IMG/VR virus record: IMGVR_UViG_3300021560_000003
Coordinates: 1 to 57,195 of that record
Strand: one strand, 5' to 3'
Origin: a virus
Lineage: Duplodnaviria; Caudoviricetes
Length of the DNA stretch: 57,195 bases
The first letter of the stretch is position 1, and each line of letters starts with the position of its first letter. The notes beneath the pieces are model-generated. The model was not told the DNA's origin. It was given only the letters and a program-made list of their open reading frames with translations, and searched no databases. The translations under genes and the position numbers were made by a program. Below, piece by piece: positions 9,433 through 54,812 of the stretch.

Positions 9433-9792
9433 GTGATTTTGCCGTCTCCTGACACGCGGCGCTGGACCGCTGGGCGCAAGGCCACGGTGGTGATCGCCGT
9501 GCGTATGGACGTCCTCACCGCCGAGGAAGCATGCGCCCGCTGGCAGCTTTCGCCCGAGGAATTGGCCGAGTGGGAGCGAGCCTGGGAGGCCGCCGGCATG
9601 CGCGGGCTGCATGTGACGATGGGGCCGCGCGGGCACTGGCGTCGGCGCCGGCCGAGGAAACGAGACGGCAATCATGCGGCCTCGCAGCAACAAGGCCGGT
9701 GCAGCAGCGACGCCAACTCGGCGCCGGTGATCGCGGAGAACGGCTCGACGAGGTCGACCGGCAGTGGCGAGCGCGTCTCGTATTTGCGGTAG
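9433..9792 (+). CDS. sciP: SciP/DUF1153 homolog (CtrA inhibitor family)
   Basis: LPSPDTRRWTAGRKATVVIAVRMDVLTAEEACARWQLSPEELAEWERAWEAAGMRGLHVT matches the recalled SciP pattern LPP.dT.RW..RRKA.VV.AV..GLL..eEAC.RY.L..EEf..W......G..GLR.T; start uncertain. Confidence 0.85.
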   Translation: MILPSPDTRRWTAGRKATVVIAVRMDVLTAEEACARWQLSPEELAEWERAWEAAGMRGLHVTMGPRGHWRRRRPRKRDGNHAASQQQGRCSSDANSAPVIAENGSTRSTGSGERVSYLR

Positions 9793-9917
9793 GCGTCGAT
9801 CGTGACACCGAGCGCATGCGCCATCTCGGCGGGCGTGAGGCCGCGCGCGACGCGGAACGAGCGAACCCGCGTGCAAAACCAGTGCGGTGATCCTCGCCGA
9901 ACAGCCTCTGGCGGCAA
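9672..9917 (-). CDS. XRE-family HTH regulator (cro position)
   Basis: FCTRVRSFRVARGLTPAEMAHALGVTIDAYRKYETRSPLP; TTG start with GGTGGGG RBS; C-terminal part of ORF 9672-10730. Confidence 0.8.
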   Translation of the reverse strand: MPPEAVRRGSPHWFCTRVRSFRVARGLTPAEMAHALGVTIDAYRKYETRSPLPVDLVEPFSAITGAELASLLHRPCCCEAA

Positions 9918-9937
9918 AAGGCGCCCCCCACCATGAG

Positions 9938-10029
9938 CGGACAATCTGTCGCGACCCTTAATTGGACAAATCGTCCACCGAGTCAAGCGTTGGAAAACTG
10001 GGCACCTGTGCCCGCCGACGGATTGTCGA
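9938..10029. promoter_or_regulatory. OR-like operator region between the divergent HTH genes
   Basis: TGGAC-AAATC-GTCCA at 9963-9977, flanked by degenerate CGGAC-AATCT-GTCGC (9938) and CCGAC-GGATT-GTCGA (10015). Confidence 0.75.
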
Positions 10030-10040
10030 CACTTGGCAAC

Positions 10041-10331
10041 ATGCCGTTGCCGCCGCGCTCGCATTTTCTCAAGGCATTCTGCGGCCGAGTGCGGGCCGCG
10101 CGGCTGGGTGCCGGGCTGACCCAGGCCGAGGTCGCCGAGGCGCTGCGCGTCGACAAGTGGACCTACAGCAAATACGAAAAGCGGACGCCGCTGCCGCATC
10201 ACCTGATCGAGCCGTTCGCCGCCACCACCGGCAGCGATATCGTCTACCTGCTGACCGGGCGGCGGCCGCGGCAATGCAGCGACGAGCAATCGCCGGTCAG
10301 CGAGCCTGCAGAGGCTATCGGCGCCGGCTAA
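10041..10331 (+). CDS. XRE-family HTH repressor (cI position), no S24 peptidase domain
   Basis: FCGRVRAARLGAGLTQAEVAEALRVDKWTYSKYEKRTPLP; flanked by operators on both sides. Confidence 0.85.
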   Translation: MPLPPRSHFLKAFCGRVRAARLGAGLTQAEVAEALRVDKWTYSKYEKRTPLPHHLIEPFAATTGSDIVYLLTGRRPRQCSDEQSPVSEPAEAIGAG

Positions 10332-10354
10332 AAAAACCCTTGTTCGCCGCGCAG

Positions 10355-10409
10355 TTGGACAAATCGTCCAAATAGGCGCTTGACTGGACAAATCGTCCAG
10401 TCTTAGCCT
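10355..10409 (+). promoter_or_regulatory. OL-like operators and early promoter
   Basis: Two exact TGGACAAATCGTCCA copies (10356-10370, 10385-10399); the second lies between TTGACT (10380) and TAGCCT. Confidence 0.8.
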
Positions 10410-10442
10410 CGCACCCACTCTGGCCCGAGGGGGAGGGGTGCT

Positions 10443-52674: not shown

Positions 52675-52678
52675 TCGC

Positions 52679-52864
52679 TTATTCGCGCTCGCCGCGCGCC
52701 AACAGCCAGGCGCCGACGATCAGAAACGCGCCGAGCACGATCAATCCGGCCGGGCGGTAGATTTGCCACGCGCCGACCGTCGCCGCGGCGCCGCCGCCGA
52801 GCCCGGCAAGGTCGCGCACGATGACCGGCGTCGCGTCGCGCAGCGCGCCGAGTAGCTTTTTCAT
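52679..52864 (-). CDS. Small two-TM protein preceding portal
   Basis: D..GL.G....G.WQIY.PAGLIV.G; common at this position. Confidence 0.75.
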   Translation of the reverse strand: MKKLLGALRDATPVIVRDLAGLGGGAAATVGAWQIYRPAGLIVLGAFLIVGAWLLARGERE

Positions 52865-52894
52865 TCGGCGCACTCCGCTTGGGTTTAAGAAAGG

Positions 52895-53122
52895 TCAGCG
52901 GCGCAGCCGCACGCCCTCGCCGCCCGAGTTCACAGAAAATTCGATCCCGGCGGCTTTATAGGCCGCCGCCAGCCGCCGCAGGCTGCGCACGCTTACCGCC
53001 TGGTCGGCCTCCTCGGCGCGCCGGATCGTCCGCGCCGAGACGCCGGCGCGCTCGGCGAGCGCTTCCATCGTCCAGGTTAGCAAGGCGCGCGCCGCGCGCA
53101 GTTGTGCAGCCGTCGGCATCAT
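52895..53122 (-). CDS. XRE-family HTH regulator of the moron
   Basis: AQLRAARALL.W....LA..AGVS..TIRR.E...AAGIEF....G.GVRL. Confidence 0.88.
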   Translation of the reverse strand: MMPTAAQLRAARALLTWTMEALAERAGVSARTIRRAEEADQAVSVRSLRRLAAAYKAAGIEFSVNSGGEGVRLRR

Positions 53123-53200
53123 GACCCCGCGGGTTGTGGCCCGCGGACCCGCCGCTAGCAAGCCCCGATCACGAGGCCGCGCGCGAGAATAATCCTCTTT

Positions 53201-53330
53201 GGCCGCAAAGCGGCCTAAATATGTTGACACCGGGCCACCGATGGCCGAAACTCGGCATTAACCAATCACTATGAGGCCAGACTGATGGCGCGTCCCACCG
53301 CCGATCGCGGCGAATCACTCCATTAACCAA
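53201..53330 (+). promoter_or_regulatory. Moron promoter region
   Basis: TTGACA at 53224; palindromes GGCCGC-AAA-GCGGCC (53201) and GGCCA-CCGA-TGGCC (53233); CATTAACCAA at 53256 and 53321. Confidence 0.55.
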
Positions 53331-53450
53331 AAGTGCGGCGCGGCTAGGCCGGCCACCGAAAGGCCGGGCTTCCCCATCCCGGCTGCCGCGCCGACCCCAA
53401 ACTGGGGCCCCCGCCCGCTGGGGAGGGCAAGTTTTTCGGAGCTTTGCCCG

Positions 53451-54812
53451 ATGACATCGCTATTGCCAGAATTGCCAGCCGCCGCGACGCGGCGCTGGAC
53501 GCCAAGGCGCAAGGCCGCGGTTGCCGCGGCGATCCGCGCCGGCGTGATCACCCCCGAGGAGGCCTGCGCCCGCTGGCGCCTCTCCCCGGAGGAGCTCGCC
53601 GGCTGGCAGGACGCCCTCGCCGCCGCCGGCGTCCGCGGTCTGCGCGCCACGCGGCGCTGGCCGCCGCCCGCGCGGCGCAGCCGATACAAGTTGGCCTGCT
53701 GCGCCACCGCGCTCGTTGCGCTGCTGGTGTTCGGCGGCGGCGGCGCCGCGACCGAGCTCGGAAACCAACCCGAGCAAGGCTGTGTCGGCGACGAGAGCCA
53801 AGGGTTCGCCTGTCTGGCGACGCTGCAGCCGGGCCAGACGGTGCGCATCGATGTCGTCTATTACTCACCGCCCGACGACGACGCCGCCGAGCCCGGCGAG
53901 GCCGAGCCGCTGGTGGTGATGGCCAACGGCGCGGTGATTTGGACGGTGCAGAACTCGGGGCCGTCGGGCGTCACGCAAAGCCTGAGTTTCACCGCCAGCG
54001 CCCCGACAAACCTGTCCTGGGCGGCGCCCGGTTGGGATGGCGATGAAAGCATCGGCGTCGGTGCCGCCTATACGGCGATGACCCCGCCGCCGCCACCACC
54101 GCCGCCGCCGCGATTCACACAAGCGCAAAAAACGCGCTACCTGCGCTGGTCGATCGCGGCGGGGCAAATGGGCGTCGTGTTCGGCCTTGCCGCCGGCTAC
54201 GCACCGGCGCCGGCGATCGTGCTAAAATACGGGCTGACCATCGCCGGAATCCTGTCAGGCGCCGAGGCGGTTTATCTTGGCCGGCTAGCCGCCGATCCGC
54301 TCGACCCGGATTATACCGACATCGCAATGCCAACCGCTTATCCGGTGCCGGCGGCCGGGCCGTGCCTGACCCGGGTCGCAACGGCGCTGGCAAATATCGC
54401 CGGGCTCGCGCAAGCCGCCTCAACGAGCTACAACCGCGAGCAATATGCGATCTCGATCGGCGACCAATACTGGACCGGGCAGCAGGGGCAGGCGATGCTG
54501 AGCTACGGCGGCCAGCTCGACGCCGAGCTGCACAATTTTCGGGCGACCGCGCGCTGTCTCGCGGTGCGGCTGTCGCCGAGCGGCGGCGCCGTGACCGCCG
54601 GCGATATCGCCGCGTTCCAAGCCGATATTGCGGCCAATGGTCTGCCGCCCGAGGCGATCGCCGCGACGCAGGCCGAGGGCGTCGATCCGGCGGATTTTAT
54701 CGCGTCGATCACATCGGCCGACCCGGTGCTGGCGGCGGCCGCGTTCAACGCGCTGATGGGGCCGCGTCCGCGCGGCCAGTATTGGCAAGCGCTGCTTGCA
54801 GGAGCGCAATGA
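53451..54812 (+). CDS. SciP-domain / membrane / extracytoplasmic fusion protein
   Basis: N-terminal LP...TRRWTPRRKAAVAAAIRAGVITPEEACARWRLSPEEL.GW......GVRGLRAT; hydrophobic segment; P9 linker; second hydrophobic hairpin. Confidence 0.8.
   Translation: MTSLLPELPAAATRRWTPRRKAAVAAAIRAGVITPEEACARWRLSPEELAGWQDALAAAGVRGLRATRRWPPPARRSRYKLACCATALVALLVFGGGGAATELGNQPEQGCVGDESQGFACLATLQPGQTVRIDVVYYSPPDDDAAEPGEAEPLVVMANGAVIWTVQNSGPSGVTQSLSFTASAPTNLSWAAPGWDGDESIGVGAAYTAMTPPPPPPPPPRFTQAQKTRYLRWSIAAGQMGVVFGLAAGYAPAPAIVLKYGLTIAGILSGAEAVYLGRLAADPLDPDYTDIAMPTAYPVPAAGPCLTRVATALANIAGLAQAASTSYNREQYAISIGDQYWTGQQGQAMLSYGGQLDAELHNFRATARCLAVRLSPSGGAVTAGDIAAFQADIAANGLPPEAIAATQAEGVDPADFIASITSADPVLAAAAFNALMGPRPRGQYWQALLAGAQ

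Follow-up and report, generated by a model that had tools for sequence, protein, structure and literature searches.

The window analysed here, a single contig of 57,195 bp that makes up the entire IMG/VR record IMGVR_UViG_3300021560_000003 and belongs to a virus with direct terminal repeats, was found to encode two proteins of the SciP family (DUF1153), one of them fused to a membrane protein, and an adjacent pair of genes for a GcrA-like zinc finger and a CtrA-related winged helix. The explanation that best accommodates these four genes, which we advance tentatively, is that the pair forms a split GcrA-like phage module, and that the SciP-type proteins are host-derived and act in the lysogen. 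A first-pass annotation of the same DNA had read the four genes as fragments of the alphaproteobacterial cell-cycle circuit, and each of the open reading frames that it named was found, at the following coordinates and strands:

9433-9792, plus strand: small SciP-family gene, with DUF1153 encoded at 9439-9621
38664-39026, minus strand: receiver-less OmpR/CtrA-type winged helix of 120 amino acids (Trans_reg_C, E 3.2e-15, residues 37-109)
39029-39250, minus strand: CCCH zinc-finger protein of 73 amino acids
53451-54812, plus strand: SciP fusion of 453 amino acids, with DUF1153 at residues 7-68 and hydrophobic segments at residues 81-99 and 240-258 (hydropathy)

All four frames are open and show a coding-type base composition, with a G+C content at third codon positions (GC3) of 0.80-0.84. 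Gene order and strand bear out the earlier assignment to three separate transcription units. The immunity region contains the small SciP-family gene. The zinc-finger and winged-helix genes belong to the head-tail operon: the preceding structural gene stops, and the zinc-finger gene starts, in a shared ATGA, a 2-nt gap separates the zinc-finger gene from the winged-helix gene, and the latter overlaps the next structural gene by 8 nt. The fusion gene is part of a cassette on the opposite strand that is framed by the large terminase and portal genes and has a terminator of its own. Three of the four genes sit in two insertions that are absent from the nearest relatives. The domain matches are far beyond chance, the direct GcrA match excepted: profile searches identified DUF1153 in two genes and Trans_reg_C in a third, whereas the match of the zinc-finger protein to the GcrA model fell below its cut-off.

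Both SciP-like genes are true DUF1153 matches, with Pfam scores far above the 23.5-bit cut-off of PF06627: 74.5 bits for the small protein (E 7.8e-21, residues 3-63), and 72.9 bits for the fusion (E 2.5e-20, residues 7-68). A six-frame DUF1153 search of the genome returned exactly two places, 9439-9621 (74.8 bits) and 53466-53654 (76.4 bits), and comparison of the small protein with solved DUF1153 structures matched 2jrt (E 6.8e-11) and 2oa4. Within the core of 61 residues, identity is 62% between the two phage copies, 61-66% between these and the Sphingomonadaceae paralog p2, and 51% between these and p1; two such paralogs lie about 10 kb apart in each of two Sphingomonadaceae genomes. The closest relatives in reference genomes came from one Sphingomonas assembly and from Hephaestia caeni (62%), followed by Rhodospirillaceae, Sphingopyxis, and Rhodobacterales (eight loci in total, the last two weak). 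By eye, the host paralog nearest to the phage proteins adjoins an XRE-type gene and a DUF6456-like gene on Sphingomonadaceae chromosomes (L131, 3446-5240; L130, 2859-5228), a hint that this SciP paralog is perhaps part of a GafA-type regulatory locus.

In Caulobacter, SciP binds CtrA and blocks RNA polymerase recruitment and CtrA-dependent activation (PMC4083442). The two phage genes would have been acquired from a host-type DUF1153 gene and trimmed to its helix-turn-helix core, giving a small, presumably soluble protein made from the immunity region, and a second, membrane-anchored protein made from a self-contained cassette. Both units are likely to be expressed in lysogens, where their products would most likely act on CtrA-dependent host transcription (of genes for motility, pili, or gene transfer agents), through contact either with CtrA itself or with SciP-type sites on the DNA.

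Among phages, DUF1153 is exceedingly rare. It was found by tblastn in none of 50,697 deposited phages, and a pattern-limited search of IMG/VR contigs returned one further fragment; a word-indexed protein search gave two matches, almost only the phage's own proteins. Related IMG/VR contigs were reached through the terminase (42 loci) and the head-tail adaptor (3 loci), and 44 related records were scanned, of which none carried DUF1153, one carried Trans_reg_C, and none matched the GcrA model. DUF1153 was likewise missing from all five related viral records that were at least 90% complete. These results agree with the earlier impression that the combination of four genes had not been seen before. 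A literature search found no paper naming DUF1153, and in a paper on CtrA in phages (PMC9437464) SciP is treated solely as a host factor.

This distribution bears on the alternative that all four genes are ordinary phage-internal regulators, whose likeness to host regulators reflects a toolkit common to phages, gene transfer agents, and hosts; DUF1153 would then be a generic DNA binder for phage operators or for the cassette, and the pair would control phage late genes only. The near-absence of DUF1153 from phages implies that it is no standard phage part, and the high identity of the two cores to the host protein, as well as the location of three of the four genes in accessory insertions dispensable to close relatives, also argue against an ordinary phage function. 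On the other side, the DUF1153 genes show weak matches to transposase-type helix-turn-helix models too, and the XRE and DUF6456-like neighbours of the nearest sphingomonad paralog would fit a phage-type regulatory setting. We regard this alternative as possible but less probable than a host-derived pair of SciP-type proteins beside a split GcrA-like module; the usual setting of the zinc finger, described below, also speaks for it.

The zinc-finger protein has the ligand spacing C14-X9-C24-X10-C35-X2-H38, with a tyrosine after the first cysteine and another before the third. A phmmer search of 1.84 billion representatives returned 166 relatives at E<=1e-3, mostly 70-140 amino acids long. In an alignment of 147 relatives, C35 and H38 are invariant, and C14, C24, S32, Y34, H39, and C42 are at least 90% conserved. 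Scanned singly, 31 of the 147 match Pfam GcrA (best 2.2e-17), and 23 match a CCCH zinc-finger model. Three relatives (P0064, P0148, and P0154) possess a GcrA-type N-terminal domain, and their C-terminus matches the phage zinc finger. Atlas neighbours are small, mostly viral protein clusters, in which PF07750 is present in 24-61% of the members. An AlphaFold model built from the 147-row alignment (pLDDT 81.9) was aligned with 48,161 chains, only two of which reached Z>=2; the first was 5yix_B, the sigma-interacting domain of GcrA (Z 2.6, rmsd 2.3 A, 35 residues). Homology of the zinc finger to the GcrA C-terminal domain is thus well supported by its relatives, its conserved ligands, and the rank of 5yix_B, and in this sense the designation as a GcrA C-terminal-like domain stands; strict membership in PF07750 does not.

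The GcrA sigma-interacting domain (residues 105-152) consists of loops held by a C-X14-C-X9-C-X2-H finger and binds region 2 of sigma70, for which W120, G129, F130, F132, Y142, and Y151 are needed (PMC5887438). By analogy, the phage zinc finger would dock on region 2 of the main sigma factor of the host. Prediction of a complex between Caulobacter sigma70 (residues 128-487) and the zinc finger, the latter with a 17-row alignment, yielded a score of 0.49, classed as "weak support", against a best of 0.00 in three controls, with at least 61% contact agreement between runs and a partner pLDDT of at least 67. Of 80 solved complexes, 58 reached the mark for support, as did 2 of 110 mismatched pairs; at scores of 0.60 or below, it was reached by only 7 of those 80 complexes, and by both of the passing mismatches. 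The GcrA complex has already been solved, so that the pass may reflect memory or likeness.

The winged helix resembles CtrA, as had been proposed. The best NCBIfam model was CtrA (46.6 bits, cut-off 350), followed by PhoB (39.5), both far below the whole-protein cut-offs because the receiver domain is lacking; its place, residues 1-36, is taken by a stretch with a CxxC motif that is conserved in the family alignment. In four Sphingomonadales genomes, the best match to the winged helix scored 40.6-45.1 bits at 38-39% identity, and the next 29-38 bits. At 420-423 bits, three of these four best matches lie above the CtrA cut-off of NCBIfam; the fourth, at 323 bits versus 350, is a CtrA-like paralog. 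The winged helix and CtrA share the ICKLRK stretch of the recognition helix. A tree built from 24 DNA-binding domains (90 columns) groups the CxxC phage winged helices in a clade (90/88) that is sister to the CtrA clade (89/85) and apart from 13 other response regulators; the tree is small, its support is moderate, and the branch of the phage protein is long (0.94). H39 and C42 of the zinc finger lie outside the GcrA motif, and, judging from these residues and the CxxC of the winged helix, a metal site common to both proteins is conceivable.

The zinc-finger and winged-helix genes occupy an insertion of their own:

38672-39246, minus strand: insertion with both genes, 575 bp with a conserved head-tail gene on either side

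L001, L002, and L003, the three nearest relatives (flanking proteins 63-66% identical), have the flanking structural genes only 9 bp apart, which identifies the 575 bp as an insertion. The pair recurs elsewhere. With the patterns used, 11 other IMG/VR loci of the CxxC winged helix were found, two of which had too little upstream sequence; a zinc-finger gene lies at most 1.5 kb upstream on the same strand in 4 of the 11, compared with 0 of 45 terminase or adaptor control loci (502 kb). Co-occurrence above chance therefore holds for the pair, but not for the four-gene set, which was absent from the 44 related records. In one protein (P0098), the zinc finger is fused to a winged helix related to that of the phage (BLASTP E 4e-4). 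From this recurrence we infer that the two proteins act together as a split GcrA-like activator: the zinc finger would contact the sigma factor, and the CtrA-related winged helix would provide DNA recognition. Such a module, probably an adaptor in two parts for RNA polymerase of the host, would work without phosphorylation and without methylated DNA, it would be transcribed along with the head-tail genes, and its targets would be other than canonical CtrA boxes within the phage.

Two further observations concern the surroundings of the pair. In L054 (IMG/VR, 3659-6019), three Trans_reg_C genes lie within about 4.4 kb, one of them directly upstream of the zinc-finger gene of that record. In addition, a small phage gene has homologs that accompany a zinc finger and a winged helix in L065 (6560-6889), L171, and L172 (about 4466-5011); in the phage itself, it stands in the early/late regulatory region:

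3652-3972, minus strand: small gene of unknown family (tblastn 53% identity, E 2.7e-32)

The zinc-finger family has a characteristic setting of its own. A scan of IMG/VR returned at least 80 loci (L050-L129), and among the 80 listed, a DUF6456-like gene was present in 31 (tblastn). In 25 it starts 71-264 bp downstream of the zinc finger, in the same orientation; an S24-type repressor gene is found 200-299 bp upstream of the finger, in opposite orientation, in 23; and the terminase genes come after. The layout of these loci is that of a prophage switch: S24 repressor, divergent zinc finger, GafA-like DUF6456 gene, terminase genes. The finger is therefore a regular lytic-switch part in a class of alphaproteobacterial prophages. 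Its position at the head of the lytic operon, beside a GafA-like gene and the terminase genes, suggests a phage transcription part rather than a decoy of host GcrA. GafA, of the DUF6456 family, directly activates the gene transfer agent of Rhodobacter (PMC9638019; PMC6363796), and zinc fingers fused to a DUF6456-type domain (P0089 and P0099) or to an XRE domain (P0032) were also found. The place of the finger between an S24 repressor and a GafA-like gene, ahead of the terminase, and the activator role of GafA favor the view of the four genes as phage-internal regulators. A literature search found no paper linking GafA to a GcrA-type zinc finger.

The phage also has a DUF6456-like gene, 33 kb away from its zinc finger:

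5383-5919, minus strand: GafA-like (DUF6456) gene (PF20057, E 5.4e-5, 23.7 bits versus a cut-off of 26.3)

Its product is 58% identical to an L053 protein of the kind encoded downstream of the zinc finger in 25 of the 80 loci. A second zinc-finger gene beside this gene was considered and rejected, as the phage has only one copy.

The first-pass annotation had gone further, and proposed that the four host-circuit fragments jointly mimic CtrA, GcrA, and SciP as dominant-negative or phosphorylation-independent forms, affording stage-specific control of the host cell cycle and of receptors. The four domain assignments on which this proposal was built hold, including the recognition-helix stretch that the winged helix shares with CtrA, and the DUF1153 cores are close to a host protein. 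The genes are spread over three differently timed units, and forms that lack a receiver or consist of the sigma-interacting domain only would act without phosphorylation or methyl-DNA reading. Its premise that GcrA homologs and CtrA sites are known in phages of this class is also supported, as alphaproteobacterial phages are known to exploit CtrA sites of the host and to encode homologs of GcrA and CcrM (PMC9437464; PMC3556154). However, both members of the pair come from phage-specific families rather than from recent host captures. At 38-39% identity, and in a phage clade of its own that is sister to CtrA, the winged helix is no recent piece of host CtrA. The zinc finger as a decoy cut from host GcrA is weakened by a family that is phage- and prophage-wide and that usually stands at the head of the lytic operon, in the phage switch beside the GafA-like gene. 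The four-gene set was absent from the 44 related records, and the phage has neither CtrA boxes nor an excess of the SciP motif. Joint mimicry of the host circuit is thus unlikely.

Several results weigh against a split GcrA-like module combined with host-derived SciP-type proteins as well. The CtrA box is TTAA-N7-TTAA. No perfect copy was found in the phage, and a single copy with one mismatch compares with 1.08 expected; the published SciP motif occurs 15 times, versus 24.7 expected. The NCBIfam equivalog "CtrA inhibitor SciP" (cut-off 100 bits) was missed by both phage copies, which scored 74 and 72.6 bits over model positions 25-85 and 24-85 of 90, whereas eight cellular DUF1153 proteins and P0007 all exceeded it (102-140 bits); about 24 N-terminal and the last 5 or so model positions are missing from both phage copies. 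The direct match of the 73-residue protein to Pfam GcrA (PF07750, gathering cut-off 26.9 bits) reached only 14.3 bits (E 0.054) and covered only positions 125-146 of the 155 in the model, and a six-frame GcrA search gave 4.5 bits. A phmmer search of the zinc finger against PDB sequences returned only two capsid chains (E 0.17-0.2) and no GcrA, and a Foldseek search of its model against the PDB returned nothing at E<=0.001. As an absolute value, the structural Z of 2.6 is low, and the shortened first loop of the phage finger removes the G129/F130 stretch that is required for sigma binding in GcrA (PMC5887438). A word-indexed search with the zinc finger returned almost only the phage's own proteins, and tblastn against deposited phages at E<=10 returned 10 records, none of them meaningful. 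As for the pair, the domain order in P0098 is the reverse of the phage gene order, and among the 50 zinc-finger records searched (of the 80 listed), Trans_reg_C was found in only four, and within 2 kb in only two, which indicates that the finger does not need a winged-helix partner. Transcription within the operon, together with the head-tail genes, is also late for a role in phage gene control. Finally, the zinc-finger family is seldom encountered in Sphingomonadales, the order of the closest DUF1153 relatives (of 201 genomes, 3 gave matches, all weak), so that the parts may differ in source.

A split GcrA-like module with host-derived SciP-type proteins remains the reading that we prefer, and it can be placed in a wider frame. 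The GcrA sigma-interacting finger may be a portable docking module, widespread in alphaproteobacterial phages and prophages, that combines, as a fusion or as a neighbour, with interchangeable DNA-binding parts, namely the N-terminal domain of GcrA, a winged helix related to CtrA, an XRE domain, or GafA/DUF6456. On this view, GcrA itself would belong to a larger family of activators that are tethered to sigma70 and have phage roots, and the present phage would add a membrane-anchored and a second SciP-type protein, both host-derived, which retune the host CtrA regulon in the lysogen. Taken jointly, these propositions are rather doubtful, a little more so than the view of the four genes as phage-internal regulators. 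If true, the docking finger of GcrA would be reusable, with a bearing on how RNA polymerase is recruited by GcrA and by GafA-type activators; the phage would carry the first phage-borne SciP; and the lysogen would have a direct means of acting on the CtrA-dependent genes for motility, pili, or gene transfer agents, and through them on phage receptors. If the four genes are phage-internal regulators instead, the gain would be a modest one in annotation.

The cassette that contains the SciP fusion has the following parts:

52675-55115: 2.4-kb insertion between the portal and large terminase genes
52895-53230, minus strand: XRE helix-turn-helix gene (Pfam HTH_3, E 6.2e-9), divergent from the fusion gene
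54809-55054, plus strand: hydrophobic protein of 81 amino acids (hydropathy; no Pfam match), overlapping the fusion stop (ATGA)
55085-55104, plus strand: terminator-like hairpin of 8 G-C pairs followed by T7, which closes the plus-strand cassette

The 2.4-kb stretch is called an insertion because only about 30 bp separate the terminase from the portal gene in three relatives (L004, L005, and L006; TerL 81%, portal 82-83% identical). The XRE gene is a candidate local regulator of the cassette. The remaining 353 residues of the fusion protein are without a Pfam match, and an Atlas search returned nothing for the C-terminal 380 residues, the N-terminus matching DUF1153 clusters only.

In the immunity region, the small SciP-family gene is followed by two XRE genes:

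9672-9890, minus strand: cro-like XRE helix-turn-helix gene (Pfam HTH_31, E 1.1e-6), convergent with the DUF1153 frame
9933-10331, plus strand: repressor-position XRE helix-turn-helix gene (Pfam HTH_3, E 3e-7)

Three copies of GGACAAATCGTCCA, at 9961-9976, 10355-10370, and 10385-10400, flank the repressor-position gene and are probably operators. The start of the small SciP-family gene is uncertain (GTG 9433 or ATG 9355). The public gene call P0006 (101 amino acids) starts 18 codons later, inside the DUF1153 domain, and loses the T-R-R-W motif; the true start probably lies upstream of it. The last 57 or so codons of the frame overlap the 3' end of the minus-strand XRE gene that stops at 9672. 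In a check of whether the small SciP-family gene, too, is an insertion, the protein encoded at 8997-9368 had no relative in five related records.

Such overprinting of the antisense strand of another gene, DUF1153 domains shorter than the cellular ones, and a combination unique to this genome among the 44 related records are what would be expected if some or all of the four genes were functionless passengers, acquired by illegitimate recombination and now decaying. The intact frames with their coding-type composition, the tight coupling of the genes to their neighbours, the conservation of the zinc ligands and of the invariant winged-helix positions, and the regulator and terminator of the cassette all argue against decay, and make this explanation very improbable.

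The phage genome is estimated to be 100% complete and has a G+C content of 64-71%. Matches to PHROG profiles identify the following genes, along with protease/major head proteins, a ParB-like protein, and a ParB-fused DNA methyltransferase:

14553-16004: integrase
39746-40426: head-tail adaptor
51328-52674: portal
55116-56870: large terminase (E 8.5e-127)

The set of terminase, portal, head, adaptor, and integrase genes indicates a temperate tailed phage. No close relative was found among deposited phages, where megablast with 36000-57195 matched nothing, and no relative of the head-tail adaptor was found among the genome contigs searched. No tRNA genes were found in the phage that could point to the host through an attachment site. 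Relatives of TerL, 60-61% identical, are present in 2 of 201 Sphingomonadales genomes, a third genome has a 61% fragment with an internal stop, and 13 of the 201 have TerL matches at E<=1e-20. The host is an alphaproteobacterium. The assignment goes no finer, because the sphingomonad TerL relatives are few and the zinc-finger family is nearly missing from that order.

Some features of the genome concern DNA methylation. GANTC sites are strongly depleted (63, versus 233 +/- 14.5 in shuffles, every one of which exceeded 63), and six such sites are packed into 43 bp (20213-20255) inside a minus-strand open reading frame that is lysozyme-type by eye only. The methyltransferase was considered as a copy of CcrM and rejected (43 bits, versus an NCBIfam equivalog cut-off of 830):

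1093-2253, minus strand: ParB-fused N6/N4 DNA methyltransferase (PHROG, E 3.8e-115)

GcrA homologs and receiver-less CtrA in phages are already known kinds of element, as is the SciP family; the novelty lies in a zinc finger and a winged helix that recur as a pair, in fusions of the finger to several DNA-binding domains, and in phage-borne genes of the SciP family. With Caulobacter SciP and the DUF1153 structures 2JRT and 2OA4 (PMC4083442), the phage copies share the helix-turn-helix core and the T-R-R-W and R-K-A motifs. Cellular members of the family are about 90-110 amino acids long, whereas one of the phage copies is fused to a membrane protein of 380 amino acids, an architecture for which no other example was found. 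In layout only, with an N-terminal DNA-binding domain, a membrane segment, and an outer domain, the fusion resembles ToxR and CadC, which are membrane-anchored one-component regulators; its DNA-binding domain is DUF1153 rather than a winged helix, and its outer part is without a known family.

The zinc-finger protein shares with GcrA of Caulobacter crescentus (5YIX; PMC5887438) the CCCH finger, the tyrosine before the third cysteine, and an aromatic residue after the first. Compared with GcrA, its first loop is five residues shorter (X9 versus X14) and its second is one residue longer; it has neither the N-terminal domain that binds methylated DNA (GANTC) nor the linker, and has the additional conserved residues H39 and C42. 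A GcrA-related gene in an alphaproteobacterial phage is likewise known from phiCbK gp222 and other phage homologs, which are detectable with pfam07750 (PMC3556154); here, the C-terminal domain stands alone, at 73 amino acids, beside another DNA-binding domain. Like the systems of the GafA/GafYZ activators (PMC6363796; PMC9638019), the phage has a DUF6456-like gene, and its zinc finger has moved from the usual position.

Receiver-less CtrA in roseophages has been published (PMC6363796), and the record annotations of roseophages also carry it. In RDJL Phi 1, gp36 was considered as a zinc-finger homolog and rejected, as it has no such motif. Its gp37 (NC_015466.1; PMC6363796) is, like the phage winged helix, a stand-alone CtrA-type DNA-binding domain in an alphaproteobacterial siphophage. 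Unlike the winged helix described here, gp37 falls within the CtrA clade (97/96), and it sits between homologs of GafA and rcc01866, whereas the phage winged helix is located in the head-tail operon, beside the zinc finger.

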